Origin: an uncultured Candidatus Saccharibacteria bacterium
Lineage (GTDB): Bacteria; Patescibacteriota; Minisyncoccia; Phycocordibacterales; UBA9973
NCBI GenBank assembly: GCA_964502615.1
Contig: CAZCXF010000001.1
Location: 151,516 to 215,515 of the forward strand
Length of the DNA stretch: 64,000 nucleotides
Reading direction: 5' to 3'
The number at the start of each line of letters is the position of its first letter. Positions within the stretch are counted from its first letter, which is position 1. The notes under the pieces are model-generated. The model was not told the origin of the DNA. It did not search any database and saw only the letters and a program-made list of their open reading frames with translations. Positions 3,746-44,011 of this stretch are shown here, one piece after another. The position numbers and the translations under genes are program-made.

Positions 3746-6109
3746 TTAATGCTGAGCTGGTAATGGAGGTTTTACTGTTTTTGTATTATTTGTCTTTGTA
3801 TTAGTGTCTGTAGCTTTTTTATCTGTAGATGATTGAGTTCCTGATAATGAACTTAAGGCATCTTTAACATCTTGGTTGTCTGGTAATACTTTTGCTATTG
3901 CATTAAATTGTGCACGGGCATCCTCAGTACGTCCGACTTTCTGATATGACTGACCTAGCAAGAAGTGAGCATTTAGATATTGTGGATCTAGAATCACAGC
4001 TCTCTCAAAAGCACTGATTGCTCCTGTGTAATCAGAGTTATTGTAACGTAGTAATCCAAGTCTAAAGAATACACTTGAATCATTTGGACTAAGGGAGCTT
4101 GCTTTCTCAGCTTGCTTTATAGCCCCAGCTAGATTCCCTTCACTTGTTTGAATCTGAGCAAGTAAGAAAATTGCATCAGTATAATCAGCTTTTAGTTCTA
4201 GAGCTTGATCAATGAATTTTTTCGCCTCATCGTTATTCTTTTTAGCGAACTCAAGTGTTGCGCGAGCAAGTATTATAGCTGGGTTGTTTGGAGCAAGAGC
4301 TTTAGCTTTATCATAAGCAGCAACCGCACTCTCGTAACTATTTGTAACTTGAAGTGGTACTAAAGAACTGTATATATTACCAAGGTTTAAGTAGTTCTGG
4401 TATTGTTTTGGATTCTGAGCAACAGCAGCATTGGCAGAAGTTTCTGCAGAGTTAACTAGTCTCTGAACACTTGTCTTTAATGTATCCTCTGAAACACTTT
4501 TATCATTGACTAATAAACCAATTTCAGCAATGTATATTTGAGAAAGAGTTCTGTAATAAATATCATTTTGATCGAGCAATAATGCATTTGACATCATTCT
4601 CTCTGACTTTGATAGAGATTCTAGTGAATTTGAACTAACTGAACCTTTTGAGAAATATATGATTGAAGCAAATTTTTCAGCGTACAAGTATGTTGTAGAA
4701 AGAGTTACAATCATTAGAACCATCAAACCTAGTATTGAGAAGAAGCTATTGCGAGGGTCTCCCAAGAAAGAAAAATGTTTAGATTGAACGCTTTGATTAT
4801 ATACAAGGATACCCAACAATAAACCAGTAGAAGTAAAAGCTATACTAAACATCAAGAAATTTGGAGTGTAAACAGCAACGACAACCCAAGAATATATTGA
4901 AGTGAGTAGCGTGGTTATTGTGAAGTAATTTGACATAGAGCTAGACAACGCCTTTCTCAATGACTTAATGACTCTTAAAACAAAATTGAATAAGAAGTAT
5001 AACCAAGCTAGGATTCCCAAAATACCAGTAGTTACTGCAAAGGTCATTAGAGAACTAAAGCCATTTGCAAAATCTACATTCCAGAAAACTGATTGTGCAA
5101 CTTCTTTTGGTTGCCACAAAGCCCAGTCAATATTGAAAGTATTTGGACCTGTACCAAAAAGTGGATTGTGCTTTATTGATTTCAAAGCAATTTGTGAAGT
5201 TGTAGATACTAGAGGATGCACATCTATGTTTTGAACACTCAAGTATCTAGCTATCAAATTACCAATAGAACTATTCCCAACTAGGAAAATCAAACATACA
5301 AAGATAACTATTAGAGAAGTAAATGGGAACTTTTTCTTACCTTCATCTGTGTGTACTACTTTAACTCCAGCTTGTTGGATAGATATACTGTAGACAAACA
5401 TAACAATAGAGAATAAAGCGACCAAAACCCAGACGAGTGGAATGTTTATAACTATCAAGAAAAATAAACCTGATACAATCAAGAAATATTGTATGAATAG
5501 TATATATCCTTTTGTTCTTAAAAATTCAACAGTAGCAAGAGATACAAGGACAAGTAAGCCAAATAGTATTGCGAAATCATTCCAAGATCCAACCAAGTTC
5601 CCAGAAGATACGCCTTTTAGTAGTCCTGGTGCAAAACGTCCAAAACCTATGAACATATTTATGATCTCAAACAAGGCAAGTATAGCTCCACCAATAAGTA
5701 ATGATAGGAAAAATGCCCAGATCCTCTTTTCAGTTTGGAAGTATATTGAAGATAGGAAGAATATTATAAATAGAACAAGCATTGAACCAAAAGTTCCTAG
5801 CTCAAATCCACTACCAAATAGAGATACGTATTTAGAAGAAGAGAAAAAAGACGAAAGCAAAAATACAACAGGAATAGCTGCACCTGCAACTATAAGTTTA
5901 TCTTTTGGAAAAGAAAACTTACCTTCTCCAAGTCTCGCAATCAACCAGAAGAATAGAGCAAGTGTTGCTCCAACTGAAATAAGAAATCCTTTACTTGCTT
6001 CGAGTGTAACTGGTACGTAAGGGATGAAGAAGAACAGACTTAAAAATATTGTGGCTAATAATGTAGTGAATGAGAGTTTATTAAAAAATTCAACTTTTTT
6101 TGATTCCAT
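3746..6109 (-). CDS. Polytopic membrane protein with an O-antigen-ligase-like (Wzy_C-type) N-terminal region and C-terminal TPR repeats
   Basis: About 12 predicted TM helices in the first roughly 480 aa. The C-terminal 300 aa hold repeated TPR-like 34-aa units (AxxYxxAxALAPNNP..., LGQSYQKVGRTEDA...) and a Thr/Lys-rich tail. Confidence 0.55.
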   Translation of the reverse strand: MESKKVEFFNKLSFTTLLATIFLSLFFFIPYVPVTLEASKGFLISVGATLALFFWLIARLGEGKFSFPKDKLIVAGAAIPVVFLLSSFFSSSKYVSLFGSGFELGTFGSMLVLFIIFFLSSIYFQTEKRIWAFFLSLLIGGAILALFEIINMFIGFGRFAPGLLKGVSSGNLVGSWNDFAILFGLLVLVSLATVEFLRTKGYILFIQYFLIVSGLFFLIVINIPLVWVLVALFSIVMFVYSISIQQAGVKVVHTDEGKKKFPFTSLIVIFVCLIFLVGNSSIGNLIARYLSVQNIDVHPLVSTTSQIALKSIKHNPLFGTGPNTFNIDWALWQPKEVAQSVFWNVDFANGFSSLMTFAVTTGILGILAWLYFLFNFVLRVIKSLRKALSSSMSNYFTITTLLTSIYSWVVVAVYTPNFLMFSIAFTSTGLLLGILVYNQSVQSKHFSFLGDPRNSFFSILGLMVLMIVTLSTTYLYAEKFASIIYFSKGSVSSNSLESLSKSERMMSNALLLDQNDIYYRTLSQIYIAEIGLLVNDKSVSEDTLKTSVQRLVNSAETSANAAVAQNPKQYQNYLNLGNIYSSLVPLQVTNSYESAVAAYDKAKALAPNNPAIILARATLEFAKKNNDEAKKFIDQALELKADYTDAIFLLAQIQTSEGNLAGAIKQAEKASSLSPNDSSVFFRLGLLRYNNSDYTGAISAFERAVILDPQYLNAHFLLGQSYQKVGRTEDARAQFNAIAKVLPDNQDVKDALSSLSGTQSSTDKKATDTNTKTNNTKTVKPPLPAQH

Positions 6110-6168: not shown

Positions 6169-9027
6169 CTAGGCAACAATATTCACAAGTCTACCCTTTA
6201 CATATATGACTCTCTTAACCTCTTTCCCTTCTATCCAAGGCAGGACTGCTTTGTCTTTAATTGCCATAGATTTTAGAGATTCTTCGTCTATATCAGGATT
6301 TATCATAACCTCAGAACGAACCTTACCATTGACCTGAATGACTATTTTAATAGAGCTATCAACAATCTTCTTTTTGTCCCATTTAGGCCACTTGGATAGA
6401 TGAATAGATTTTTTCTCGCCAAGTTCTCTCCATATCTCCTCACTTATATGTGGAGCAAAAGGAGCGAGTATCTGTAAGAAAATTTTAAAATCTTTTTTTG
6501 AAATATTTTTTGATTTTTCTATTTCATTAACCAAAACCATCATAGAAGAAATTGCAGTATTGAAACTCATTGATTCTATATCTTCTGTTATTTTTTTTAT
6601 TGTTTTATGCAGCAAGGTTTCCAATTCTTTTTCTGAAGTTTTTGAAAATTCATTTTGAGCAATTCTCCAAACCTTCTCCAAGAAACGTCGTGATCCAATA
6701 ATACTCTCTGTACTCCAAGATACTGCCTGATCAAATGGTCCAATAAACATCTCATACACTCGCAAAGTATCTGCTCCATAGAGTTTAACTATATCTTTAG
6801 GATCGATAGTATTACCAAGTGATTTAGACATTTTAGCTCCACCTTCGGCAAGTATCATACCGTGGCTTGTTCGCTTCATATATGGCTCACTAGTTGGTAC
6901 AAGCTTCAAATCATATAAAAACTTATGCCAAAAGCGCGAATATAGTAAGTGTAGAGTTGTATGCTCCATTCCCCCGTTGTACCAATCTACTCCGTTTTTC
7001 ATCCAGTATTTCAATGCCTTTTTACTAGCAAACTCTTTATTGTTTTTTGGGTCGACATATCGCAAAAAGTACCAAGAAGAACCAGCCCAGTTTGGCATAG
7101 TGTCTGTTTCTCTTTTTGCTTTACCTTTACATTTTGGGCATTTAGTATTTACCCATTTATCTATGATAGCAAGCGGGCTCTCGCCGTTATCTGTAGGCAT
7201 GTAAGATTTTACTTTCGGTAAAGTTACTGGCAAATCTTTTTCTGGAACCGGAACATATCCACATTTTTCACAATGAACTATTGGAATAGGCTCACCCCAG
7301 TAACGCTGTCTTGAAAATACCCAATCACGAAGTTTGTATTTTGTTACAATTTTTCCACCAACAGCTTCAGTGATTTTCTTTTTAGCTTCCTCTGAAGTAA
7401 TACCGTTAAATTTTTCTGAATTTGAAAGAACGCCATAACCTGTATACACCTGATTTAAATTGTTTAATAAATCCCATATTCTTAAAGACGATTGCTCGTG
7501 AACAAAATTTTTTACTTCCTCTTTTTTTACCCAAAAAACATCATGCTTAGCTTTTTCTTCTTCAACCATTTCTTCTCTTTTATCACTTTGCAATTCAAAA
7601 TACATACCTTTAAAATGTGCGTATCTATTTAAATTTTTTGGTGTGTGGAAAAATTTACTATGATATTGTCCCCCAACCTGTTTTATAAATTTTAAATCTA
7701 AATAACCTGTCTCTTCTCGAACTTCCATTCGAGATGCTTCTTCAGCTGTCTGACCTTCTTCAATACCACCAGTAACAAAAGTTCTCCAATCAACCTTTTT
7801 CCATTTAAGACACAAGTATTTATCCTCACTCCAGTGTTTAACAATAACATCCACAACATTCCTTTCTATAAAAGGCAATCCGTCTTTGGGTTTTGAACTT
7901 TCTGAAGTATCAATGAAAAGAGGTTCAATAACTTCCTTGACTGGTAGTTTATATTTCTGTGCAAATACAAAATCCCTTTCATCATGAGCTGGTACTGCCA
8001 TTACAGCTCCTGTACCATAACTTGCAAGCACATAATCCGCAATCCATATAGGCACTTCCTCATTATTTGCAGGATTTATGGCTTTCAAACCCTTAACTTC
8101 AATACCAGTTTTCTCTTTTTCTTCTGAGGTACGATCAAGTTCGGATTTATTTTTGATTTCAGAAATATATTTTTCTATTTCTGTTTTATTTATAACACCT
8201 GAATCAAATGTTAAAATTGTTTTCTCTACAAGTGGATGCTCTGGTGCAAGTACAACGTAAGTAACACCAAAAAGAGTATCCGCGCGAGTTGTGAATACTT
8301 TTATTTTTTCATTTGTATTTTTTATTTTAAAATCTATTTCACTACCTTCACTTTTCCCTATCCAGTTCCTCTGTTGAATTTTTATCTTTTCTAGGTAGTC
8401 TACCTTATCAAGATCGCTATCTAGTCTATCTGCGTATTTTGTAATTGCGAGCATCCATTGCTCCTTTTCTTTCTTAACTACTTCAGTACCACAACGCTCA
8501 CAACACCCATTTACCACTTCTTCATTTGCAAGACCTATTTTATCTTTGGGACACCAGTTTATAACGCTCCTAGCCTTGTAAGCTAAGCCTTTTTTGTATA
8601 ATTGCAAAAATATCCATTGCGTCCATTTATAATATTCAGGGTCAGTTGTGTTTACTTCCCGAGACCAGTCAAATCCAAAGCCTATTTCTTTGAGTTGCTT
8701 ACGAAATACATCTGTATTTTGTTTAGTAACTTTTTCTGGTTGAATACCTGTCTTTATTGCATAGTTTTCCGTTGGCAATCCAAATGCGTCCCAACCTATT
8801 GGAAAAAGAGTATTATATCCTTCCATGCGACGCTTGCGAGTGATTATATCCATCGCAGTATTTGATCTAATATGCCCCACGTGAAGGCCAGCACCAGATG
8901 GATATGGGAATTCTATTAAGCCATAGAATTTTTTACCGCTAGTACTATTTTTTGCTTGGTAAATTTTCTTTTTATCCCATTCATTCTGCCATTTCTTTTC
9001 AATTTTTGAGTGATCGTAATTTTTCAT
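6169..9027 (-). CDS. leuS: Leucyl-tRNA synthetase with an in-frame Nudix hydrolase domain insertion
   Basis: HIGH ('AGLHVGHIRS') and KMSKS motifs, the editing-domain region 'AHDERDFVFAQKYKLP' and the C-terminal LeuRS region are all present. About 150 aa are inserted after the editing domain and carry a canonical Nudix box 'GGIEEGQTAEEASRMEVREETGY'. Confidence 0.95.
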   Translation of the reverse strand: MKNYDHSKIEKKWQNEWDKKKIYQAKNSTSGKKFYGLIEFPYPSGAGLHVGHIRSNTAMDIITRKRRMEGYNTLFPIGWDAFGLPTENYAIKTGIQPEKVTKQNTDVFRKQLKEIGFGFDWSREVNTTDPEYYKWTQWIFLQLYKKGLAYKARSVINWCPKDKIGLANEEVVNGCCERCGTEVVKKEKEQWMLAITKYADRLDSDLDKVDYLEKIKIQQRNWIGKSEGSEIDFKIKNTNEKIKVFTTRADTLFGVTYVVLAPEHPLVEKTILTFDSGVINKTEIEKYISEIKNKSELDRTSEEKEKTGIEVKGLKAINPANNEEVPIWIADYVLASYGTGAVMAVPAHDERDFVFAQKYKLPVKEVIEPLFIDTSESSKPKDGLPFIERNVVDVIVKHWSEDKYLCLKWKKVDWRTFVTGGIEEGQTAEEASRMEVREETGYLDLKFIKQVGGQYHSKFFHTPKNLNRYAHFKGMYFELQSDKREEMVEEEKAKHDVFWVKKEEVKNFVHEQSSLRIWDLLNNLNQVYTGYGVLSNSEKFNGITSEEAKKKITEAVGGKIVTKYKLRDWVFSRQRYWGEPIPIVHCEKCGYVPVPEKDLPVTLPKVKSYMPTDNGESPLAIIDKWVNTKCPKCKGKAKRETDTMPNWAGSSWYFLRYVDPKNNKEFASKKALKYWMKNGVDWYNGGMEHTTLHLLYSRFWHKFLYDLKLVPTSEPYMKRTSHGMILAEGGAKMSKSLGNTIDPKDIVKLYGADTLRVYEMFIGPFDQAVSWSTESIIGSRRFLEKVWRIAQNEFSKTSEKELETLLHKTIKKITEDIESMSFNTAISSMMVLVNEIEKSKNISKKDFKIFLQILAPFAPHISEEIWRELGEKKSIHLSKWPKWDKKKIVDSSIKIVIQVNGKVRSEVMINPDIDEESLKSMAIKDKAVLPWIEGKEVKRVIYVKGRLVNIVA

Positions 9028-24050: not shown

Positions 24051-24132
24051 GCCGGAGTGGCGGAATTGGTAGACGCGCACGACTCAAAATCGTGTCTCGC
24101 AAGGGGTGAGAGTTCGATTCTCTCCTCCGGCA
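24051..24132 (+). tRNA. tRNA-Leu (anticodon CAA), type II with a long variable arm
   Basis: Acceptor GCCGGAG/CTCCGGC, anticodon stem CACGA/TCGTG with loop CUCAAAA, T-arm GAGAG-TTCGATT-CTCTC. Confidence 0.85.
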
Positions 24133-24137
24133 CAAAT

Positions 24138-25224: not shown

Positions 25225-26736
25225 ATGAAAAAGCAAAAGGAGCAGGAAAAAATAGGGTTTTTTATAAAAGAGCTACGTGAGAGGCGTGGGCTCACCCAAG
25301 GTGCATTTGCAAAAGAATTAGGTACATCTCAGAGTGCTGTAGCACGTATGGAAAAAGGAGACCAAAATTTCAGCACTGAACTATTATCAAAAATCAGTGA
25401 TATTCTTGAACATCAAATAGTTTCAATAAATAATTCGATAGATTTTCAAATTGTCGGTGGTAAAAAATTGCACGGTAGTATTACAACAAACTTTTCTAAA
25501 AATGGTTCAGTTGGACTTCTTTGCGCATCCCTACTAAACAAAGGCAAAACTACTCTTCATGGAATTGCTCGTATTGAAGAAGTTTATAGAGTAATTGAAA
25601 TACTAGAGAGTATTGGGGTAAGCGTTAAATGGATTGATAGAAATTCTGTCCAGATAGTTCCACCTAAAAAGCTAACTCTTGATAAAATAAACGTAGAATC
25701 TGCTATAAAAACCCGCTCTGTGATTATGCTTATTGGGCCACTTATTCATTTACTTCCGACATTCTCTATCCCCCATGCATCTGGTTGCAAGCTTGGCAAA
25801 CGCACAATTTCAGCTCATACATATGCATTGGAAGATATTGGTGTAAAAATTAAAACAACAAACTCAACTTATGAGATAGGAGCTCAAAAATTGAATCCAG
25901 CAAATATTGTAATGTATGAAGCTGGTGACACTGCATGTGAAAATATTCTTACAGCTGTTGCTAAAGTACCTGGAAAAACAACTATATCATTTGCTAGTGG
26001 TAACTATATGGTTCAAGAGATCTGTTTCTTCATTGAAAAACTAGGGATAAAAATCGAAGGCATTGGTACAAGCACTATGATAGTACATGGGGTAAAAGAT
26101 ATAGATATGGATGTAGAATACTCAAATAGTGAAGACCCTATTGAATCCATGATGTTTATATCGGCAGCTATTGCCACAGATTCAGAGTTAACTATTACAA
26201 GATGTCCCATTGATTTCTTGTCGCTTGAACTTGAAAAACTAAAGAGAATGAATCTAAAATATAAAATACTAAAAAGTTATAAATCATATAATGGACGTAC
26301 TAACTTAATAGATATAAAAATAATGCCATCAAAACTAATCGCGCTTGATGATAAAATTCATGCTAACCCTTACCCTGGAATAAACATGGATAACCTTCCC
26401 TTCTTTGTACCTATTGCAATAAAAGCAAAAGGCCAAACTATGATACATGACTGGGTGTATGAGAACAGAGCAATATACTTTACAGAATTAAATAGGCTTG
26501 GAGCAGATGTTACCCTCGCTGATCCACACAGAGTATATATTCAAGGTGGTACACAATTGAAAGGAGCTCAGGTTGTTTGCCCTCCTGCCCTTCGTCCTGC
26601 GATGATCATATTGATTGGAATGCTTGGAGCACATGGAACTTCTGTATTACGTAACGTATATATGATCAGCCGAGGATATGAGGAAATAGCTGACAGACTT
26701 AACAAAATTGGTGCAGATATTACAATACTTAAGTAA
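25225..26736 (+). CDS. murA: HTH-XRE domain fused to UDP-N-acetylglucosamine 1-carboxyvinyltransferase (MurA)
   Basis: The first 75 aa or so, 'IKELRERRGLTQGAFAKELGTSQSAVARMEKGDQNFSTELLSKISDIL', form a classic HTH_3 domain. The rest aligns to MurA, including the catalytic Cys loop 'SGCKLGKRTISAH' and the C-terminal 'RNVYMISRGYEEIADRLNKIGADITILK'. Confidence 0.85.
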   Translation: MKKQKEQEKIGFFIKELRERRGLTQGAFAKELGTSQSAVARMEKGDQNFSTELLSKISDILEHQIVSINNSIDFQIVGGKKLHGSITTNFSKNGSVGLLCASLLNKGKTTLHGIARIEEVYRVIEILESIGVSVKWIDRNSVQIVPPKKLTLDKINVESAIKTRSVIMLIGPLIHLLPTFSIPHASGCKLGKRTISAHTYALEDIGVKIKTTNSTYEIGAQKLNPANIVMYEAGDTACENILTAVAKVPGKTTISFASGNYMVQEICFFIEKLGIKIEGIGTSTMIVHGVKDIDMDVEYSNSEDPIESMMFISAAIATDSELTITRCPIDFLSLELEKLKRMNLKYKILKSYKSYNGRTNLIDIKIMPSKLIALDDKIHANPYPGINMDNLPFFVPIAIKAKGQTMIHDWVYENRAIYFTELNRLGADVTLADPHRVYIQGGTQLKGAQVVCPPALRPAMIILIGMLGAHGTSVLRNVYMISRGYEEIADRLNKIGADITILK

Positions 26737-29545: not shown

Positions 29546-31939
29546 TTATTCTTCTAATATTTTTCTTAAAACTTCTTCGGGAACCTCTTTTTTAGGCTGA
29601 GGTTTCTGCCAAGAATTATTATTTGCAGGAATATTATTAGGAACTACCTGATCAGTATTTTGTGGTTGTGATGAATTTACTGGCTTAGATTCAATTTTTT
29701 GAATTATGGGAACCTCTATTTTAGGTGGCATTGGTACCTCTGGTTTCGGGGGAATCTGTACTTCAACTTTTGGAGGAACAGGGATTAGTGGTTCTACTTT
29801 TGTCTCAACCTTTGGTTCTATTTTTGGCTCTTCTACAACTATTTTCGATTCTTTTATAGGTTCAGGAATAGTATTACTGATAGAAATAGACTCTGGAGCC
29901 CTTACTTCAGGTATTTTTATAACCGGTTGTTCAACTTTTGGTTTAATCTCTTCTAGAATAGGTTTTACTTCCACTGGTTTAACTTCAACTTTAGTAACCT
30001 CTGCGGGTTTTGTTTGAGGTGGAGCAACTTTGGCCAATAAATCTTTAAGTGAAGCTTTTTTCTCTTCAGAAGCTTCTTTGGTTGGTACAGATACAGTTGG
30101 AATATTAGTTTCTGGTTTTTTTAAAGTTGAAAGTGATACCGGAGTAGGAGTTTCTTTTTTTATTTCAACGACAGGTGGATTAGTAGGTTGTTTTTGAGAT
30201 CTATCCCCGCCAATTTTTTCTAGCAATCCTTTCAGTAGTGGAGATGGACCAGAATGTTTCTTTTCAGTTTGATTATTATTTCTCTGAAAATTATTGGTGT
30301 TATTGTTTTTGTTAAATGGTGGTCGTCCTTGCCCAGACTGGTTTTGGTTGGGAGTAAATCCGTTTTTATTAGGGGCCTTATTACCACCAGCATCAGTAAA
30401 CTCAATACCTAGCATTGCAAGAGGTGAAGTAGAATTCTTTTCTTCTTGACGTGCAGAGCGAGAAGCTACGAATCCAGTCTGTGGCTTTAACTCACCACTT
30501 TTAATTTTAAACATACAGTCTTTACAATACACTGGCCTACCCTCTTTAGGCTCAAAAGGGACCATTATAGACTTACCACAATTTGAACAATCTGCTTTAT
30601 ATTTTGCTTCACCTTCAACAGTCTGAAGTGTTCCACTCCATTTATTTATTTCGGCTTCAACTTCTTCACGTGGACGAGCATAGAGTTTCCTTGATGACTC
30701 TATTATTTTTTCTTTGACTCCTGCTGAAGGATCAATCTTAAGAGGTGGTAATGTACTTGCAGAAAAAGGTCTACTTGTAACACCATCAATCATGAGCTTT
30801 AGATATATGTGGTAGTTTGGAAGATTAACTAGATCCTGAGCGGTAAATTCTGGTTCAAATTCTTTTTCAATAAATTCTGCATCATCAGCACCAACTCGAA
30901 AAATTATCATAGTTCCAACGTTTCCGAAAACTGCATCTCTTACGGCTGTACCATTTTCATTTGAAAGCTGAGCCGTGTATTGGTGAGCAATTATAAGATT
31001 TAGGCGGTATTTACGAGCTTCGGAAAGAATATTTGCAAAAGAATCAGTTGCAAAGTTTTGGAACTCATCCACATATAGGTAGAAATCTTTACGTTCATTT
31101 TCTGGTATACGCACACGTTCCATCGCAGCAAGCTGGATCTTGGTAATAATCATACCTCCAAGAAGCGCAGAGTTGTCTTCACCTACACGTCCTTTTGAAA
31201 CATTTACAAGGAAAATCTTCCCTTCGTTCATTATCTTGAAAATATCAATTGTAGATTTAGATTGACCAACTACGTTACGGATGATTGAAGTTGATAGGAA
31301 TTGTCCAACTTTGTTTTGAATCGGGGCAATTGCTTCATTTCTAAACTGTTCACGCCATTGTTCGTACTCATGAACCCAAAAGGCTTTGACCACGGGGTCT
31401 TTTAAGTTGCCAATAATCATTTGACGATAGTCTTTGTCTACGAGAAGTCTTGGAATACCTAGGAGTGTTGTACCTGGAGTATCAAGAAGTGCCAAGATTG
31501 CGTTATTTAGAATGTATTCCATACGAGAACTCCAAGCATTAGCCCAAATCTTGGTAAATATTCCCATAAGTCCAGAAGCGACTAAGTGTTTGTATTTTGG
31601 ATCATCTAGTGCAATAACATTGAAACCAACATTGAAATCAATATCTGCTGGGTTAAAGTATATTACGTCTTTGGCACGATGGTCAGGAATAAGGTGAAGA
31701 ATTTCTTCAACCAACTCTCCGTGTGGATCAACCACACAAACACCTTCCCCATTATTTATATTTTGAACTATTAGATTAGATAGGAGTACAGACTTACCGG
31801 TACCAGATTTACCGAGCACATACATATGTTGCCTTCTGTCTTTCCTCTTGATACCAAATATATTATTGGTACTGCGAAAATTGGTCTTAGCGAAGTAAGT
31901 TATATCTCGATTGTGTGGAATTTGGTTGTTCGGATCCAT
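29546..31939 (-). CDS. TraD/VirD4-like (FtsK/HerA superfamily) soluble P-loop ATPase with an internal Zn-ribbon and a long Pro/Lys/Glu-rich disordered C-terminal tail
   Basis: Walker A 'VLGKSGTGKS', Walker B 'FYLYVDEFQNFAT', coupling-protein-like 'SEARKYRLNLIIAHQYTAQL...GNVGTMIIFRVG'. There is a CxxC-x19-CxxC ribbon 'CSNCGKSIMVPFEPKEGRPVYCKDCMF' and about 300 aa of low-complexity PK/E-rich tail. It is a paralog of 38563..40041. Confidence 0.7.
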   Translation of the reverse strand: MDPNNQIPHNRDITYFAKTNFRSTNNIFGIKRKDRRQHMYVLGKSGTGKSVLLSNLIVQNINNGEGVCVVDPHGELVEEILHLIPDHRAKDVIYFNPADIDFNVGFNVIALDDPKYKHLVASGLMGIFTKIWANAWSSRMEYILNNAILALLDTPGTTLLGIPRLLVDKDYRQMIIGNLKDPVVKAFWVHEYEQWREQFRNEAIAPIQNKVGQFLSTSIIRNVVGQSKSTIDIFKIMNEGKIFLVNVSKGRVGEDNSALLGGMIITKIQLAAMERVRIPENERKDFYLYVDEFQNFATDSFANILSEARKYRLNLIIAHQYTAQLSNENGTAVRDAVFGNVGTMIIFRVGADDAEFIEKEFEPEFTAQDLVNLPNYHIYLKLMIDGVTSRPFSASTLPPLKIDPSAGVKEKIIESSRKLYARPREEVEAEINKWSGTLQTVEGEAKYKADCSNCGKSIMVPFEPKEGRPVYCKDCMFKIKSGELKPQTGFVASRSARQEEKNSTSPLAMLGIEFTDAGGNKAPNKNGFTPNQNQSGQGRPPFNKNNNTNNFQRNNNQTEKKHSGPSPLLKGLLEKIGGDRSQKQPTNPPVVEIKKETPTPVSLSTLKKPETNIPTVSVPTKEASEEKKASLKDLLAKVAPPQTKPAEVTKVEVKPVEVKPILEEIKPKVEQPVIKIPEVRAPESISISNTIPEPIKESKIVVEEPKIEPKVETKVEPLIPVPPKVEVQIPPKPEVPMPPKIEVPIIQKIESKPVNSSQPQNTDQVVPNNIPANNNSWQKPQPKKEVPEEVLRKILEE

Positions 31940-32588: not shown

Positions 32589-34283
32589 TTAATTCACTTC
32601 CTGTTGATAGCAGGATTCGCAATAAACTATATCGGGTTGATTCGGTTCGTAACTAGTTTGAAACTCATTTTTACAACCTTCTTTCATACATGAACGATTG
32701 TAAAGTTTTGGTTTATTTATAAATTTATAACGGTCTAAAAACCTACAGTTATGACATTTATGAGGCAGAGGTAACCCAATCCGTTTATAAAATTGCAATT
32801 CAATCGGAACTATTCTATATGCTTTTTTACAATTTACGCATGCAATAATTTCTTTTGTAATATCTTCTGAGACTTCAGTAATTGAATCTGGCAAATCGTT
32901 ACCGCTTATAGTAGTCTGAAATTCACGTGCATTTGGCTCGCGCCACAAGAAACCTTTCTGCAATGCTTCTTCTTTGCTTATTGGGACATAATCTTGTGCC
33001 AAACTTTCGTTGTATGCCAAGGGTGAAAAGGAAGATGGGAAGAAGTCCCCATATGTATATACTTTTCCTTGCTCATCGACATATGGCATATCTTTCATAT
33101 GCTGTACTATCTTTGGAACAAGCGCTTCGTATTCTTCCTTTGAATACTGTTTATTTAAAATGCAGTATTGTTTTTTCTTTAGACTAACACAACCAAATGA
33201 ATTTGATGCACCAAAACAATAACCACAGTATTCTAGATCTCGGACATTCCCAAAACAATTGAAACAGTATTTTAATCCATAAGCTCCATCTCCACATGTC
33301 ATGCATTCGTAGGCATTTTCTATTCCCATAAAAAGTTGGCAGGAATCATAGGAGTTAGCGGCTTTCAAAACACTTATCTGTACATAACGTAAGTTCTCAG
33401 CATTCTCTACAGAAAAAGAGTCTCTTACATTTTTTGAATCACTAACCCTATCCCCTGTACAATTTAAATTTCTTGAACCATGATAGTATTTTACTGGGAA
33501 TTTTTGCCAAAAATCTGGAATAGTATCATTTAATTGTTTAATTGATTCATAGGAACTTAGATTTATTTCAGATATTCTTTTCTCATATTCTTCTCTAGAG
33601 AGCGGCTCATTAAAAAAATAATAAGATTTACCACGTAGATTTACGCAACCAAAACAATTTGTACATCCACGAAGCCCTTTGCTAAACCATACATCCACAC
33701 AACTTTCACAATCAACAGAAAACATAGTTTGGTAAGATTTGTACACCATTACACATTCATAGCATAGCTCGTCATCTATCATTTCATGGGAATCAAATGA
33801 ATTTTTTACATTAGTTACCTTTACTAAATATCCAGAATCTTCTATAAAATCTGCATCAAAACATAGATATGCATTCTTTAGCCTCCCTGCCTCATTGCAA
33901 TAGTCTGAATTTATCATAAATCCAGCAGAAGACTTTGCCATAATAGGTACACGGTTGAGTAGTGATTGGAATTGTTTGAAGAATGGTACTGAGAAATCGT
34001 ATTCTACCCCGTAATCCAATGCTTCCCATTCGTCACCATACCAATAAGTGGTTTCATATGTTTGCATAGGTGCTTCGGCTGGAATACCTGAAAAGGAGTC
34101 ATTACCAGTATGAGCATCTTTTCTTCGAAATAAATTGCGTTCATTTCTCCAAGTCAACCGACGAACCATACGACACTCCGGACACCAAGTAGGTACTGGA
34201 ACCTTCATCTTTTCGTAGAAAGAAAAATCATCCGGTTCGATATTGAAATCTTTTTTACAATTTTGGCAGTTTTTTGTTTCCAT
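32589..34283 (-). CDS. Cysteine-rich multi-zinc-ribbon protein, paralog C (564 aa)
   Basis: N-terminal CxxC-x22-CxxC ribbon ('NCQNCKKDFNIEPDDFSFYEKMKVPVPTWCPECR'), internal CxxCxGC modules and C-terminal ribbons ('CVNCKKAYRIVPIELQFYKRIGLPLPHKCHNCR', '...VYCESCYQQEVN'). The 2nd ribbon is lost relative to paralogs A and B. Confidence 0.8.
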   Translation of the reverse strand: METKNCQNCKKDFNIEPDDFSFYEKMKVPVPTWCPECRMVRRLTWRNERNLFRRKDAHTGNDSFSGIPAEAPMQTYETTYWYGDEWEALDYGVEYDFSVPFFKQFQSLLNRVPIMAKSSAGFMINSDYCNEAGRLKNAYLCFDADFIEDSGYLVKVTNVKNSFDSHEMIDDELCYECVMVYKSYQTMFSVDCESCVDVWFSKGLRGCTNCFGCVNLRGKSYYFFNEPLSREEYEKRISEINLSSYESIKQLNDTIPDFWQKFPVKYYHGSRNLNCTGDRVSDSKNVRDSFSVENAENLRYVQISVLKAANSYDSCQLFMGIENAYECMTCGDGAYGLKYCFNCFGNVRDLEYCGYCFGASNSFGCVSLKKKQYCILNKQYSKEEYEALVPKIVQHMKDMPYVDEQGKVYTYGDFFPSSFSPLAYNESLAQDYVPISKEEALQKGFLWREPNAREFQTTISGNDLPDSITEVSEDITKEIIACVNCKKAYRIVPIELQFYKRIGLPLPHKCHNCRFLDRYKFINKPKLYNRSCMKEGCKNEFQTSYEPNQPDIVYCESCYQQEVN

Positions 34284-34284
34284 A

Positions 34285-35979
34285 TTAATTTACTTCTTTT
34301 AAATAGCAAGACTCACAATAAATAATCTCTGGCCGACCTGGGGCGTAACTTGTATCAAATTCATTATGACAGCCACCCTTCATACAATTCCTATGCCAGA
34401 GTTTGAAAGGATTTCTTCTAGCAACACGTCTAGAATGTCGACAATGGAAACATCTTCTAGGTATTGGGATTTCCATTTTCCTATATAGTGTAAGTTCATC
34501 TCCGACAATTTTATAATTCCTATTACAATCAATACATTTTAAAACCTCACTTGTTATAGAGTCTGGGACATCAAAAATACTCTCTGGAATATTTTCTGGC
34601 ACTAACGTCTCGCGACCGACTGTACGCTGTATATTATCTTGCCATTTATAGCCTAATGAAATTGCCTCTTCTTTATTTAGTGGGAAATGTTCCATAGCTA
34701 TAGTTTCATTGTACCCAAAAGGAGCAATCTCAACTGGGTAAAATTCTCCATATTTATACACTAATCCACGTTGATCTATATAAGGCATTGTATTCATATG
34801 CTCTATAATCTTAGGCAATATTTCTTCATATTCTTCTTTGGTATATTCTTTATTTAGGATGCAATACTTTGCATTGCGTAAAGAAACACATCCAAAAATA
34901 TTTTTTGAAGAATGGCAATGTTGAGAATATTGAATGTTTTGGCTCTTTACAGAAAAAACACCAAAAAAATTATTAAATGAGTGATCGCACACTACAGAAT
35001 CGTAACATTCTTCAATCTCGCCAGACATGGTTATATCATAAGAACCTTTGTTGTCATTTGAATACTCAGCATATTTACAATTCTCTAATTTTTTTACTAA
35101 AAAAGAATTCTTAGTGTTTTTACTATAAGAAACGATATCTCCAGTACAGTCAAAATTCTGCTTCATCCAAGCATATCTTCTAGGATAATGCAGAATAAAT
35201 TCATCATATTCTTTTTGAGCTTTTTCTACTCCACTGAAAGTGTCTAATCTATATTCCTTCAAAATATTTTCATATTCCTCTTTTTCGTATTGTTTATTCC
35301 TAAAATGGTATCTTTTGTTTCTAAGACCAGTACACATGAAGCAATCGGAGCAGTTCTGACAATCGTAAAGAAATTGTGAGTTTATACAAGATCTACTAAA
35401 AAATGAGTGCTTAAGCATGTAGCCATGCGAACAATTTATACATTCATATAAATACTCAGCTTCTGCCATATTTATCATCCCGTCTATAATATTTTTTCCA
35501 GCAAGAATATAGAAGCTATACATTATGTTCTCTATATGCCAACCTGAAAAAACCATATAACAGTTCTTAGCAAACCATATGTCGTGAGTATATTCACAAT
35601 TTAAACTAGCTATTCCATCGTCATTTACAACCGCCATCTGTGGAACTCTATAAAGTAATTCTTTGAATTGTTCAAAAAATGGTTTTGAAAAATCATAGTC
35701 CTGTGCATAATCTTTTGGGTCCCATTTGTCACTCCACCAGCATTTATTGCAATAAACTATAACTCCAGAATCAGGAGAATAAATTGATACGACAGACTTT
35801 TGGCAAAGTTCACAAGTGCGTGAATAAAGAGATAAACTGTTGCGCCAAGCATGACGCCTCTGACTTCGACATTCTGGGCAAAAGGTAGGCGCTGGAACTT
35901 TTATCTTTCCATAGAAAGAAAAATCATCCGGTTCAATGGTAAAATTATTTTTACAATTTTGGCAGTTTCGGGTTTCCAT
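34285..35979 (-). CDS. Cysteine-rich multi-zinc-ribbon protein, paralog B (564 aa)
   Basis: Same architecture and collinear with A and C, separated from C by 1 nt and from A by 2 nt. It has the second ribbon 'CELCQKSVVSIYSPDSGVIVYCNKCWW'. Confidence 0.8.
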   Translation of the reverse strand: METRNCQNCKNNFTIEPDDFSFYGKIKVPAPTFCPECRSQRRHAWRNSLSLYSRTCELCQKSVVSIYSPDSGVIVYCNKCWWSDKWDPKDYAQDYDFSKPFFEQFKELLYRVPQMAVVNDDGIASLNCEYTHDIWFAKNCYMVFSGWHIENIMYSFYILAGKNIIDGMINMAEAEYLYECINCSHGYMLKHSFFSRSCINSQFLYDCQNCSDCFMCTGLRNKRYHFRNKQYEKEEYENILKEYRLDTFSGVEKAQKEYDEFILHYPRRYAWMKQNFDCTGDIVSYSKNTKNSFLVKKLENCKYAEYSNDNKGSYDITMSGEIEECYDSVVCDHSFNNFFGVFSVKSQNIQYSQHCHSSKNIFGCVSLRNAKYCILNKEYTKEEYEEILPKIIEHMNTMPYIDQRGLVYKYGEFYPVEIAPFGYNETIAMEHFPLNKEEAISLGYKWQDNIQRTVGRETLVPENIPESIFDVPDSITSEVLKCIDCNRNYKIVGDELTLYRKMEIPIPRRCFHCRHSRRVARRNPFKLWHRNCMKGGCHNEFDTSYAPGRPEIIYCESCYLKEVN

Positions 35980-35981
35980 GA

Positions 35982-37682
35982 TTAATTAAACTCTTGTTGG
36001 TAGCATTTTTCACAATAAACTATTTCAGGTCTATCTTTGGAAAAAGCAGTAGTAATATTACTATTACATTTAGCACAGTTCCTTGACCATAAGTGTATTG
36101 GATTGAGGCGAGAAAAATGAGCTTTTTGCCTACACTGCGGACAGTTATGTGGAACTGGGAGATTCATTTTTTTTAATAAATTAAGTTCAAGTGGTCCAAT
36201 TTTATATCCACGACCACATTTTTCACATTTTATAATTTCACTAAGAATAGATTCAGTAATTTGGTTAATGGTATTAAATAGTTCTGTGGCATTTATTGTT
36301 GTTTTATATTCCAATTGATCAGCTTCATGCCACATATATCCCATAGAAAGGGCTTCTTCTTTTGTTTTTGGGAAAAACTTCATTACATCAGATTCGTTAT
36401 AGCCAAATAAATTAAATTTAATAGGATAAAATTCGCCATAACTCCACACACGACCCAACTCATCTACATAAGGATTTTTTTTCATATCTTCAACAATTTG
36501 AACTTTGAGTTTCTCGTATTCTTCCTTTGAATATTCTTTATTCAAAATACAGTAGGATTTGCGTTTTAGATTTACGCATCCGAAGACATTTTTACAAGCA
36601 GAGCTCCACATAGAATATTCAATATTCATACTATCTGGGTAGCAACTATTAGAAAATTTTATATTACTTGCTTTCTCGCCAGTCGAGTGAGCCTCATATA
36701 TGAGGTCAACATTTGCACCCCACCCAGAGTAATCGTAGCAATCACGAGCCGTAGGAACTGTCACGAACTGAACATATCTAGAGTCTTCCACACTAGTACA
36801 AAGGTATAAATCTTGTGAATTTTTTGATTCAAATACATACTCGCCAGTAATATTCAAATTCATTGAATTGCCGGTGTAAGATCGATAAGGTTTTGTGAGC
36901 CAAAATGCGCGAGAACTTTCAATTAAGCCTTGTAGAGTATTCCATGAATTCAGGCCTAATTCTTTTACTTTAAGATCATAATCTTCCTTTGAATACTTTT
37001 CATTAAAAATACAATATGATTCTCCTCGTAAATTTGCACATCCTATACAATTTGTACAATTGTAACAATTACGAGAAAACCAAACATCTGTACATGCATC
37101 ACATTCTTCTGAAAAAAAAGTTTGGTAACATTTATTAATCCCTAGTGAGTTATAGCAAAGTTCCGATTCGCGAGCTCTCATACAATCAGAGGAATCTTTC
37201 AGTTGTAAAATAATTGAGGAGTGAGTAACGTTTTCAGCGTAATCTGCCCAAAAAGTAAGATAACAATTTCTTAACCAAGATGCTCCATTGCAGTATTCAG
37301 AATTTATCATTGAAGGACCGAGTGTTTCTGTCGCAACCCATGGTGTCTTTCTTGAAAGTTCATAAAGTTGTTCGAAAAAGTTTCTATTAGGATCATAATC
37401 CATAGCATACTCAGTACCATCCCAATCATCTGCCCACCAACATTCTGAACAGTAAACTATAATAGGGTTATCTTTATGATACATAGAGAGTGTTCTTTTT
37501 TTACATTTATCACAATCACGAAAATATACCGTCCAAACAGTTTTTGAAGCATTCCTCCGAATAATTCTACATTCTGGACACCATGTAGGATGAGGCACAT
37601 TGATTTTTTGATAGTAGAGTTTATCCCTCTCATCAATAATAAAATCTGTTTTGCAATTTTGGCAGTTTCTAGTTTCGTTCAT
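35982..37682 (-). CDS. Cysteine-rich multi-zinc-ribbon protein, paralog A (566 aa)
   Basis: Same architecture. It includes a CxxCxxCxxC module 'CYNCTNCIGCANLRGESYCIFNEKYSKEDYD' and the repeat 'GCVNLKRKSYCILNKEYSKEEYE'. It overlaps the upstream nucleotidyltransferase gene by 14 nt. Confidence 0.8.
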   Translation of the reverse strand: MNETRNCQNCKTDFIIDERDKLYYQKINVPHPTWCPECRIIRRNASKTVWTVYFRDCDKCKKRTLSMYHKDNPIIVYCSECWWADDWDGTEYAMDYDPNRNFFEQLYELSRKTPWVATETLGPSMINSEYCNGASWLRNCYLTFWADYAENVTHSSIILQLKDSSDCMRARESELCYNSLGINKCYQTFFSEECDACTDVWFSRNCYNCTNCIGCANLRGESYCIFNEKYSKEDYDLKVKELGLNSWNTLQGLIESSRAFWLTKPYRSYTGNSMNLNITGEYVFESKNSQDLYLCTSVEDSRYVQFVTVPTARDCYDYSGWGANVDLIYEAHSTGEKASNIKFSNSCYPDSMNIEYSMWSSACKNVFGCVNLKRKSYCILNKEYSKEEYEKLKVQIVEDMKKNPYVDELGRVWSYGEFYPIKFNLFGYNESDVMKFFPKTKEEALSMGYMWHEADQLEYKTTINATELFNTINQITESILSEIIKCEKCGRGYKIGPLELNLLKKMNLPVPHNCPQCRQKAHFSRLNPIHLWSRNCAKCNSNITTAFSKDRPEIVYCEKCYQQEFN

Positions 37683-43486: not shown

Positions 43487-44011
43487 TTACCCAAAAAGTG
43501 ATTTAATTTTTTCCCATGGTACAGATACGAGAAGCGTGCCGAGAAAAACCATAGCAAGTCCAATTATTGCTTGAACTGTAATCCCCTCTGCCAAGACAAC
43601 GGTTGCAAATATAGCAGTAAGAACAACAGAGAGCTTATCTATTACAGTTACAGTTACCGTGGGACCACCAGCAAGTGCTTGGTAGAAAAATATCCAAGAG
43701 AGTGCCCCACCAAGACCAGAAAGTATTACAAAAAGCCATTGCTTTTGAGAAAGAGAATGGATTGCTGTTATTGAAAGTTTACCAAATGAAAGTGCTGCAA
43801 TACATACAACTACTGCCATAACAATCCCTCTTATAGCAGTGAGCAAATTAGCATCGACACCTTTAAGTCCGAGCTTTGCAAAAATAGTGCCCATACTTGC
43901 CATTACAGCCCCTAGTAACGCGTAAATAATATACATGATTCCATTATACCAAAAGAAACCCCTTTCGGGGTCTCTTTTGCTATAATAACTAATCTTCTTT
44001 TTTTGGAGCAA
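43487..44011 (-). CDS. Single-EamA-domain (DMT superfamily) small membrane transporter-like protein
   Basis: 4 TM helices with 'ALSWIFFYQAL...' typical of EamA. The start is probably an internal Met (near 43936), which removes the overlap with the upstream gene. Confidence 0.55.
   Translation of the reverse strand: MLQKKKISYYSKRDPERGFFWYNGIMYIIYALLGAVMASMGTIFAKLGLKGVDANLLTAIRGIVMAVVVCIAALSFGKLSITAIHSLSQKQWLFVILSGLGGALSWIFFYQALAGGPTVTVTVIDKLSVVLTAIFATVVLAEGITVQAIIGLAMVFLGTLLVSVPWEKIKSLFG

Follow-up and report, generated by a model that had tools for sequence, protein, structure and literature searches.

Aminoacyl-tRNA synthetases (aaRS) are among the best-studied enzymes, and new biology (editing, signalling, Ap4A) has come to light more than once through their accessory domains. 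In leucyl-tRNA synthetase (LeuRS), lineage-specific insertions are known from the CP1 domain. Examples are the 20-residue CP1 peptide of Aquifex aeolicus and the CP1 insertion of Giardia, both short peptides that tune editing or aminoacylation. In another class Ia synthetase an extra enzyme domain has been catalogued: ileS_w_GNAT (NCBIfam NF040702), a curated 'exception' family, holds isoleucyl-tRNA synthetases with an added N-acetyltransferase. Synthetases are also a main source of Ap4A, which is degraded by Nudix enzymes; by-products of aaRS are thus substrates of the Nudix pyrophosphohydrolases of dinucleoside polyphosphates and RNA (PMC10148737). Full-text literature searches found no description of a Nudix domain nested in LeuRS. 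The first-pass annotation of the locus discussed here had supposed the architecture to be undescribed, and as far as checked this holds.

The locus lies in a window of 64,000 nucleotides (the whole stretch of DNA that was analysed, to which all positions refer), and all features described below are on the minus strand. The host gene leuS (6169..9027) is a single uninterrupted open reading frame (ORF) for a bacterial-type LeuRS of 952 aa. Its product scores 1005.7 bits against the TIGR00396 equivalog HMM (cutoff 548.4) and matches the LeuRS of Thermus thermophilus (Tt; 1h3n) with E = 2.8e-216; the full-length AF2 model has a pLDDT of 84.4 and a pTM of 0.71. The motifs of both the synthetic and the editing site are intact. 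The HIGH signature of the synthetic site reads HVGH (aa 49-52; 8872..8883), with H49, G51 and H52 invariant and V50 nearly so in alignment A4, and the KMSKS signature is found at aa 732-736 (6820..6834). The first part of the CP1 editing domain, up to the insert (aa 220-368; 7924..8370), holds the threonine-rich editing-site motif TTRADT (aa 246-251; 8275..8292), which we take to be the T247/T248/T252 region of Escherichia coli, and the AHD motif (aa 347-349; 7981..7989), which bears the universal Asp. T246, T247, R248, D250 and T251 are invariant in a 53-sequence LeuRS alignment, as are H348 and D349 in the LeuRS alignment, and neither editing nor synthetic motifs vary across insert-bearing LeuRS. 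A leucine-specific domain before KMSKS is typical of bacterial-type LeuRS, if not universal. In the alignment to 1h3n this domain (Tt residues 580-634) is absent from the window's protein, where aa 727 corresponds to Tt 579 and aa 730 to Tt 635. Some other LeuRS lack it too, for example that of Mycoplasma mobile (PMC3643597).

Positions 7450..7923 (aa 369-526, 158 aa) encode a domain of Nudix fold, autonomous and set into a surface loop of CP1. The boundaries of this cassette come from close relatives with an empty site, which have 6-8 residues in its place ('...EIKEVVS-GGSILE-KAYTEDG...'); it begins with a Pro ('PLFID') and ends at a Gln-Val ('NLNQ' then 'VYTG'). When aligned with 1h3n, aa 368 corresponds to Tt 363 and aa 524 to Tt 373, with about 150 extra residues in between, and the part of CP1 after the insert (aa 527-563, 'VYTGYGVLSNSEKF...'; 7339..7449) aligns from Tt residue 373 on. 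The PF13603 match to the editing domain (229 bits) is split, with profile positions 1-143 of 185 falling on aa 220-370 and a second matched stretch reported further on. The first-pass annotation had placed a complete, in-frame Nudix domain at 7410-7875, at the end of the CP1 region. The T. thermophilus alignment confirms the insertion and its point; the empty-site relatives move its limits, and the split PF13603 match, together with the conserved 'VYTGYGVLSNSEKF' strand that follows the cassette, puts it inside CP1 and not at its end.

That the domain is complete is borne out by profile and fold. Pfam NUDIX (PF00293, cutoff 21.1 bits) matches aa 413-508 of the whole LeuRS with 36.5 bits and the insert alone with 40.7 bits, and on the excised insert Pfam reports NUDIX only, with no Hint or endonuclease domain. 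The AF2 model of the excised insert has a pLDDT of 97. It shows the alpha/beta/alpha Nudix fold: Foldseek assigns probability 1.0 to many solved Nudix hydrolases, the highest TM being 0.77 (2azw), and the matches include the Aquifex Ap4A hydrolase (3i7u, TM 0.69/0.80), the Ap6A hydrolase Ndx1, CT771, RppH and NudI. The top PDB sequence-profile match is the lupin Ap4A hydrolase (1f3y, 34 bits). The junction regions reach 82-93 per 10-residue block in the full-length model, where a strand (aa 367-372) passes from the LeuRS 'VIE' to the 'PLF' of the cassette. Tblastn found no second Nudix gene within the 64-kb window. No flanking repeats are present at the cassette, only short AT-rich chance repeats. 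An intein or a repeat-bearing mobile element was considered for this position and rejected, as splicing motifs and an endonuclease are both missing.

The identical 952-aa protein occurs on at least six contigs from at least three samples, among them two JGI metagenomes and an SRA run, and more than 100 homologues preserve the cassette junctions. The survey of related LeuRS that the first-pass annotation had proposed comprised the window's LeuRS and its 120 closest cluster representatives. The same Nudix family sits at this site (site A) in 115 of these 121 proteins, and the insert is missing altogether in six close relatives. The domain also lies inside LeuRS ORFs at no fewer than 68 of the 80 GTDB species-representative loci retrieved. 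The family is found almost only in metagenome-assembled genomes (MAGs) labelled Patescibacteria, with a few instances on contigs with archaeal-type neighbours, and it has five settings: site A, other LeuRS sites, a gene upstream of leuS, an unlinked gene, and a prolyl-tRNA synthetase (ProRS). Some LeuRS have a second Nudix copy, near aa 235 (site B) or near aa 207 (site C), and single LeuRS proteins of 1461-1735 aa hold three Nudix matches. At three loci (L020, L041, L058) leuS is directly preceded, at a distance of ~15-55 nt, by a Nudix gene of its own, the unlinked free-standing genes encode about 160 aa, and one ProRS (P0300) has a nested NUDIX. Of the 149 best-ranking representatives of the family, LeuRS and its fragments make up 102 and free-standing proteins only 33. 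The neighbourhoods of the free-standing homologues show no conserved genes, whether translation-related or other. Some of these family members are annotated as 'NUDIX hydrolase' or '8-oxo-dGTP pyrophosphatase MutT (NUDIX family)', and some MAG records name 157-aa free-standing Nudix genes 'leuS'. The same LeuRS scaffolds also hold unrelated domains, namely Ham1/ITPase, HAD (HAD_2) and alpha/beta-hydrolase (Ser_hydrolase), and the LeuRS gene of one relative contains a DUF559 endonuclease element with terminal inverted repeats.

The phylogeny of the cassette is uncoupled from that of its host gene. The closest LeuRS (P0046), from a fully syntenic locus, is 88.5% identical to that of the window in the backbone and 35% in the Nudix domain. 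At the DNA level, window positions 7932-7410 alone are as low as 47-69% identical to a syntenic relative (L003); identity is mostly 75-94% elsewhere along the aligned locus. Across 5050 pairs the correlation between cassette and backbone is rho = -0.004, compared with 0.24-0.60 for control LeuRS segments. The reverse discordance is seen as well, in a pair with 69% identity in the backbone and 87.5% in the Nudix domain. From this uncoupling it follows that cassettes have been exchanged, gained and lost; most simply, the exchange would proceed by homologous recombination via the highly conserved flanking LeuRS sequence. Rapid divergence in situ was rejected as an explanation of the 35% identity, given the low dN/dS and the closer cassettes elsewhere: that of the window is 54-67% identical to cassettes of more distant LeuRS and 60% to free-standing genes. 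Selection on the cassette is strongly purifying, with dN/dS of 0.014-0.083 between embedded cassettes and 0.15 in one pair of free-standing copies. Nudix copies within one protein are 32-50% identical and have different box types, so that intragenic duplication was rejected as the source of second copies; the types ER and Q coexist in two-copy LeuRS proteins.

The Nudix box of the window, GGIEEGQTAEEASRMEVREETGY (aa 420-442, G420-Y442; 7702..7770), is a variant one. It fits the consensus GX5EX7REUXEEXGU at G1, E16, U17 (V), E19, E20 and G22, positions 16, 19 and 20 being E435, E438 and E439. It deviates at E7 (Q426), R15 (M434, with R433 adjacent) and U23 (Y). The box had been called canonical in the first-pass annotation, with REx2EE intact, which is not exact: the three glutamates and both glycines fit, positions 7 and 15 do not. 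Among 168 aligned domain copies, of which 128 are embedded and 40 free-standing, none departs from G1, E16, E19 or E20 and 166 have G22, and the catalytic glutamates are retained in every copy of the multi-copy proteins examined. The Q-type box is kept in 39 of 40 free-standing homologues and is therefore a trait of the subfamily and not a sign of decay. The missing E7 and R15 might lower or alter catalysis. All in all, the module is predicted to be a working Mg2+-dependent pyrophosphohydrolase, and it probably is one.

What the enzyme acts on is addressed by several searches; the first-pass annotation had named Ap4A, mis-activated adenylates and NDP-X as candidates. The best NCBIfam equivalog, for RppH (NF001936), reaches 24.1 bits against a cutoff of 118, and the MutT 8-oxo-dGTPase model (TIGR00586) 12.7 against 97.9. 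The structural neighbours found by Foldseek cover several Nudix specificities, and neither these, nor the NCBIfam equivalogs, nor the PDB profile search give a decisive substrate assignment for the cassette; its similarity to hydrolases of Ap4A or 5'-ppp-RNA is weak (1f3y, 3i7u). The repeated physical coupling to two unrelated aaRS classes points to a job connected with synthetase chemistry. The best explanation, to which we would give about an even chance, is that of a predicted active pyrophosphohydrolase tied to a synthetase, perhaps clearing Ap4A-type by-products. The putative substrates would be dinucleoside polyphosphates (Ap4A, Ap3A, Ap4N), which arise at synthetases by attack of ATP on the enzyme-bound aminoacyl-adenylate. 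In a minimal genome, tethering would ensure that the module and the source enzyme are expressed together and at 1:1 stoichiometry. Hydrolysis of these putative substrates by a module tethered to their source is speculative, and we propose it tentatively. Against it, LeuRS is classed among the low Ap4A producers (Goerlich 1982, cited in PMC10148737). In the overall weighing, the six insert-free close relatives were counted against a synthetase-linked active enzyme, as was the lack of conserved translation-related neighbours around free-standing homologues.

The same LeuRS scaffolds host unrelated domains, and LeuRS may for this reason simply be a permissive carrier. The cassette would then be a self-sufficient house-cleaning enzyme for nucleotides, with a job unrelated to leucylation. 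LeuRS is large, essential and constitutively expressed, with insertion-tolerant loops; in streamlined genomes it would carry small hydrolase genes, which recombination through the conserved leuS flanks would spread and swap. The Ham1/ITPase, HAD_2 and Ser_hydrolase domains and the TIR-flanked DUF559 endonuclease, nested at several sites in this LeuRS family, speak for such a carrier, and Ham1 and Nudix are both NTP-sanitising types of enzyme. The uncoupled histories of backbone and cassette, the differing presence of the cassette among close relatives and the free-standing homologues without any conserved neighbours are also in favour. However, the coupling of one and the same Nudix family with LeuRS takes no fewer than four distinct forms (site A, site B, site C and the upstream gene), and its nesting in a class II ProRS as well exceeds what generic insertion tolerance predicts; the excess of LeuRS-linked over free-standing members (102 to 33 among the top 149) is a further point against it. 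We regard a passenger role as possible, but as less likely than a synthetase-linked one.

The replacement of the cassette between near-identical host genes resembles the pattern of conflict loci. This could mean that a rapidly exchanged enzyme protects LeuRS or tRNA-Leu by removing a lesion or toxin derived from nucleotides, with diversifying selection favouring the swapping of variants. Examples would be modifications of ADP-ribose or nucleotidyl type, and effectors from phages or competitors that are capped or dinucleotides. The several divergent copies per protein, the patchy presence and absence, and the selfish endonuclease element in the same gene of a relative all fit, and the joint occurrence of ER and Q boxes in two-copy proteins suggests non-redundant specificities. 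Within a cassette lineage, however, selection is purifying and not diversifying. The cassette matches no PADLOC defence family (free-standing homologues give only 14 bits, E ~0.005, to a candidate family), no toxin partner or defence-island context is visible within the 64-kb window, and no known toxin fits. A protective function of this kind is improbable.

Somewhat less probable still is a non-catalytic insert, that is, a module that hydrolyses nothing and tunes editing or aminoacylation in a structural role, by sensing nucleotides or by contacting tRNA; the first-pass annotation had listed a catalytically dead insert as its alternative. The mobility of the CP1 domain and the loss of the canonical E7 and R15 would agree with it, but the metal-binding or catalytic glutamates are present without exception in embedded and free-standing copies alike, dN/dS stays at 0.014-0.15, and free-standing proteins, where there is no LeuRS to be regulated, conserve the Q-type box just as well. 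A misjoin of a free-standing Nudix gene into leuS by assembly error has a negligible chance of being true: related organisms do have such genes at 45-60% identity, but the uninterrupted ORF, the three separate samples, the GTDB loci and the junctions shared by independent assemblies and more than 100 homologues refute it. Neither of the two refuting conditions named in the first-pass annotation thus holds, the NUDIX HMM score being above threshold and the junctions reproduced.

A complete second enzyme within the editing domain of LeuRS, present in more than 100 protein clusters, is probably unexpected to specialists, and some relatives go further, with up to three Nudix copies plus other hydrolases in LeuRS of up to 1735 aa. 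The uncoupled histories and the strong purifying selection make it a clean natural example of domain-level horizontal exchange in an essential gene, of relevance to the evolution of multidomain proteins and to the engineering of insertion-tolerant sites. A synthetase-linked role for the module also offers a concrete hypothesis, in which synthetase side-chemistry (Ap4A-type dinucleotides) would be tied to its clearance in minimal cells. A broader and more doubtful conjecture is that in microbes with ultra-small genomes synthetases offer a platform for nested enzyme cassettes that can be exchanged, the Nudix module having a synthetase-linked job. The evidence comes from Patescibacteria, and the contigs with archaeal-type neighbours suggest that DPANN-like archaea are included. 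The cassettes, above all Nudix with Ham1, HAD and alpha/beta-hydrolase in addition, may be swapped between alleles independently of the host gene, and the putative job may be to clear adenylate-derived dinucleotides at their source or to shield synthetase or tRNA from nucleotide-based attack. If true, it would add to aaRS biology a layer that has so far gone unrecognised, with an unusual gene organisation and horizontal exchange of domains inside an essential gene.

Among known proteins, the free-standing Patescibacterial Nudix proteins (~160 aa; for example P0002, P0001 and P0013) are closest. They belong to the same family, with 45-60% identity over the whole domain, and share the N-terminal 'EPLFID...PFVER' strand and the Q-type box with the cassette; no biochemical characterisation of them was found. 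They differ in being separate genes, without LeuRS flanks and without conserved neighbours. The Ap4A hydrolases of lupin, Aquifex and human, Ndx1 of T. thermophilus and RppH/NudH of E. coli have the same compact single-domain Nudix fold, but they are only 14-22% identical to the cassette, the RppH equivalog HMMs stay far below their cutoffs, the cassette has Q and M at box positions 7 and 15, and no synthetase contains any of these enzymes. Inteins and homing endonucleases likewise sit in frame at a conserved site of an essential gene, are patchily distributed and do not follow the phylogeny of the host gene, whereas the Nudix cassette has no Hint or splicing motif and no endonuclease, is retained in the model of the mature protein and keeps an enzyme active site. 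The ileS_w_GNAT family differs in both the synthetase and the added domain. Like the CP1 insertions of Aquifex and Giardia, the cassette occupies a surface region and leaves the core fold intact; unlike those peptides, it is a complete foreign enzyme domain with free-standing homologues.

The leucyl-tRNA synthetase (LeuRS) of this window is encoded on the minus strand by an uninterrupted leuS ORF of 952 aa (6169..9027) and is of the bacterial type. It matches TIGR00396 with 1005.7 bits (cutoff 548.4) and the T. thermophilus enzyme (Tt; 1h3n) with E = 2.8e-216, and has the HVGH and KMSKS motifs. Aligned to Tt LeuRS, residues 368 and 524 of the window protein fall opposite Tt 363 and 373, which gives it about 150 extra residues at this position (site A). 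Close relatives that lack an insert here read '...EIKEVVS-GGSILE-KAYTEDGALVNSGKF...', and this empty site sets the bounds of the extra cassette at aa 369-526 (7450..7923, minus strand). The first-pass annotation had described a Nudix domain inserted in frame into LeuRS, which the single ORF bears out, although its coordinates (7410-7875) were slightly off. It had also placed the insert at the end of the editing/CP1 region. This was incorrect, since the PF13603 editing-domain match is split by the insert, with profile positions 1-143 of 185 preceding it and a second stretch also matched, so that the insert lies within CP1. The TTRADT and AHD motifs of editing and the motifs of the synthetic site are kept across insert-bearing relatives, and on this motif conservation the host LeuRS looks fully functional. 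The leucine-specific domain before KMSKS (Tt residues 580-634) is missing in the window LeuRS, which has only about 2 residues in its place (aa 727-730; window 6835-6846). A tRNA-Leu(CAA) gene is found at 24051-24133 (plus strand), about 15 kb from leuS.

The insert is recognised by the Pfam NUDIX profile both in the whole protein (aa 413-508, 36.5 bits) and when excised (40.7 bits), in each case above the gathering score of 21.1. Its Nudix box, GGIEEGQTAEEASRMEVREETGY (aa 420-442; 7702-7770, minus strand), has both glycines and the three glutamates of REUXEE, but position 7 is Q instead of E and position 15 is M instead of R; an Arg is present at position 14. The box is therefore only approximately the canonical one with an intact REx2EE that had been reported: the glycines and glutamates are there and positions 7 and 15 are not. 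An AlphaFold2 model of the insert (pLDDT 97) matches solved Nudix hydrolases in Foldseek with probability 1.0. The best match is 2azw, an uncharacterised Nudix protein from E. faecalis (TM 0.77), followed by NudI, the Aquifex Ap4A hydrolase (TM 0.69/0.80), RppH, the Ap6A hydrolase Ndx1 and CT771. In a profile search of PDB sequences a lupin Ap4A hydrolase comes out on top with only 34 bits, and the curated equivalog models stay far under their cutoffs (RppH 24 vs 118, MutT 12.7 vs 97.9). With matches this weak and mixed, assignment to a Nudix subfamily or substrate is not possible. In a model of the full-length LeuRS (pLDDT 84.4, pTM 0.71; Nudix blocks 88-95), one continuous beta-strand (aa 367-372) joins 'VIE' of LeuRS to 'PLF' of the cassette.

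The same 952-aa protein is found, identical, on at least six contigs; among the matches listed, it comes from three places (two JGI metagenomes and one SRA run). The comparison set comprised the window LeuRS and the 120 representatives of 90%-identity clusters closest to it; 115 of these 121 proteins have the same Nudix family at site A. A scan of GTDB species-representative genomes gave 80 loci, about 68 of them with the domain inside LeuRS ORFs of about 900-1735 aa, in MAGs labelled as Nomurabacteria, Moranbacteria/Moraniibacteriota, Taylorbacteria, Zambryskibacteria, Colwellbacteria, Paceibacterota and Saccharibacteria/Saccharimonadales. Such recurrence rules out an assembly chimera, the chance of which is practically nil.

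The Nudix module is exchanged as a cassette. The window LeuRS has its closest relative in P0046, and synteny between the two loci is complete, with YrdC, a DUF1003-like gene, a 189-aa gene, leuS, a TPR protein, MurJ and LepA in common. The two proteins are 88.5% identical in the backbone (LeuRS without the insert) and 91% in the editing domain, and 35% in the cassette. At the DNA level, the loci are mostly 75-94% identical, and within leuS identity falls to 47-69% only at window 7932-7410. A more distant LeuRS, P0119, has 67% cassette identity to the window with a backbone identity of 74%, and free-standing genes are up to 60% identical to the window cassette, which is closer than the cassette of P0046. 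Among LeuRS with a single insert, cassette identity shows no correlation with backbone identity (5050 pairs; Spearman rho = -0.004, p = 0.77). Where the backbones are at least 85% identical, the median cassette identity is 39%; five control segments of LeuRS give rho 0.24-0.60, and medians of 71-96% in the same class of pairs. The discordance also runs in reverse, as in P0078 vs P0080, where the backbone is 69% and the cassette 87.5% identical. Relaxed or runaway divergence is excluded as the cause of low cassette identity by the low dN/dS of the cassette (0.014-0.083 in embedded pairs, 0.15 in one free-standing pair). No repeats were found flanking the window cassette, and Pfam and the cassette ends gave no intein or endonuclease features. 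The simplest mechanism of exchange would be homologous recombination between leuS alleles through their very conserved flanks; from the fall in DNA identity, breakpoints would be expected at window ~7932 and ~7410. The recombination tracts may extend past the cassette into CP1. The identity of the editing domain tracks that of the remaining LeuRS weakly (rho 0.24). Between the window and another relative, P0047, this domain (window 7924-8370) is 63.5% identical, with a backbone identity of 86.6%.

The same family is also found outside site A, and it is recurrently coupled to aminoacyl-tRNA synthetase (aaRS) genes. A second copy is present in 13 of the 120 LeuRS relatives, at one of two sites: site B, where the editing domain begins (~aa 235), or site C, ahead of that domain (~aa 207). 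The LeuRS of three species representatives (L026, L035, L057) have three Nudix matches. The copies fall into two types by box positions 7 and 15. One, the ER type, has E7 and R15 as in the canonical box and accounts for the majority of copies at site A. In the other, the Q type, position 7 is Q and position 15 is small or hydrophobic; it includes the window copy, about a quarter of the remaining copies at site A, every copy at sites B and C and, of the 40 free-standing proteins retrieved, 39. All 168 copies in the alignment have G1, E16, E19 and E20, and 166 have G22. LeuRS with two copies pair an ER type at site A with a Q type at site B or C. Such paired copies are 32-50% identical to each other, which, together with their different boxes, excludes recent internal duplication as their source; they may be non-redundant.

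With only the insert as query, a search found about 40 proteins of ~160 aa that are free-standing and 45-60% identical to it. They are solitary, and no conserved neighbours were found in the loci compared. Searched exhaustively, 1.84 billion cluster representatives gave 227 matches at E <= 1e-10, of which the best 149 comprise 102 LeuRS or LeuRS fragments, 33 free-standing proteins and 14 others. In three loci (L020:3989-4480, L058:~3980-4468 and L041:~686-1450) a separate, co-oriented gene for a 163-aa Q-type Nudix protein is found upstream of leuS at a distance of ~15-55 nt, and this leuS has a diverged Nudix of its own at site A. One of the 14 other proteins of the exhaustive search is a class II enzyme from a JGI metagenome (3300036940, L088:2906-4837), the 643-aa prolyl-tRNA synthetase (ProRS) P0300, in which the Nudix is nested, with the order class II core, HGTP anticodon domain, NUDIX (aa 398-515) and ProRS C-terminal domain. 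Its linker is common to several shorter proteins, among them the fragments P0200, P0215, P0266, P0298 and P0303 and stand-alone proteins of ~230 aa (L089:3797-4522, L090:3830-4516, L091, L092), which have a short N-terminal domain and then the Nudix. This N-terminal domain resembles a class II anticodon-binding domain, and the surrounding genes look archaeal (prefoldin-like, eIF-2B-like). It is worth adding that two free-standing Nudix genes, P0020 and P0031 (157 aa; L001:6001-6474), are labelled 'leuS' in NCBI MAG records, probably by annotation transfer from LeuRS-Nudix proteins.

Nudix is not the only domain nested in these LeuRS. Relatives also contain Ham1/ITPase (site B), Ser_hydrolase-type alpha/beta-hydrolases (site B or near aa 589), HAD_2 (near aa 635) and two modules of ~120 aa without assignment. 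The 1735-aa LeuRS of a Taylorbacteria MAG (L035:2738-7942) combines three Nudix matches with an alpha/beta-hydrolase and a HAD domain. It is one of a set of giant LeuRS of 1357-1735 aa (also L026:1137-5753, L057:1328-5710 and L011:1676-5746) with up to three Nudix matches and nested Ser_hydrolase alpha/beta-hydrolase and HAD_2 domains at several sites. Another LeuRS, in L075 (CAITSA010000011.1), has at site B an in-frame ORF (L075:3179-3640), with its own ATG, for a DUF559 (Vsr-like) endonuclease. At its ends are terminal inverted repeats of ~31 nt that match imperfectly (AACCCCTCCCCAGCCCTCCCCGAAGGAGAGG and an imperfect reverse complement of it); P0155 has the same architecture. This insert looks like a selfish mobile element translated through within LeuRS. 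The variety of nested domains shows that the LeuRS scaffold is tolerant of insertions in general.

The window module is a Nudix domain that is folded, maintained by selection and intact in its metal-binding glutamates, and the LeuRS around it is intact as well. The module is probably an active pyrophosphohydrolase. Whether its role is tied to synthetase chemistry is evenly balanced; such a tie is suggested because one family is coupled to LeuRS in four or more separate ways, and to a class II ProRS as well. Dinucleoside polyphosphates of the Ap4A type, which synthetases make from aminoacyl-adenylate and ATP and which Nudix enzymes degrade (PMC10148737), would be a speculative and rather doubtful candidate substrate. 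According to that source, LeuRS is a low Ap4A producer in classical assays (Goerlich 1982), which counts against this reading, as does the fact that the insert resembles Ap4A hydrolases no more closely than it does other small Nudix enzymes. The module could instead be a passenger, a house-cleaning enzyme carried by a permissive LeuRS; this has its chief support in the general tolerance of the scaffold and is a possible, if less probable, explanation. A conflict or protection module is improbable, and a non-catalytic insert very improbable. An active pyrophosphohydrolase tied to the synthetases remains the preferred reading.

Several other features of the window are recorded here. A 503-aa protein (25225-26736, plus strand) joins an N-terminal HTH_3 DNA-binding domain to an EPSP_synthase/MurA-type enolpyruvyl transferase domain, a fusion that is unusual. 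There are three tandem ORFs of 564-566 aa (32589-37682, minus strand; one scanned, with no Pfam match) and a 1069-aa ORF (43989-47198, minus strand), also with no Pfam match; T4SS-coupling and HerA-like ATPases are nearby (29546-31939 and 38563-40041). The window also has tRNA-Trp and tRNA-Ala genes.

A search of the full-text literature found no description of a Nudix domain as an insert in, or a fusion with, LeuRS or any other aaRS, in agreement with the first-pass annotation, which knew of none. The insert-bearing proteins are in public databases, where their Pfam labels were assigned automatically and they are simply named 'leucine--tRNA ligase', so the sequences are known while their architecture and behaviour appear to have gone unremarked. 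Synthetases with an added enzyme domain are already known, the NCBIfam family 'ileS_w_GNAT' being likewise of this kind; what is unusual in the nested Nudix is its exchange as a cassette.
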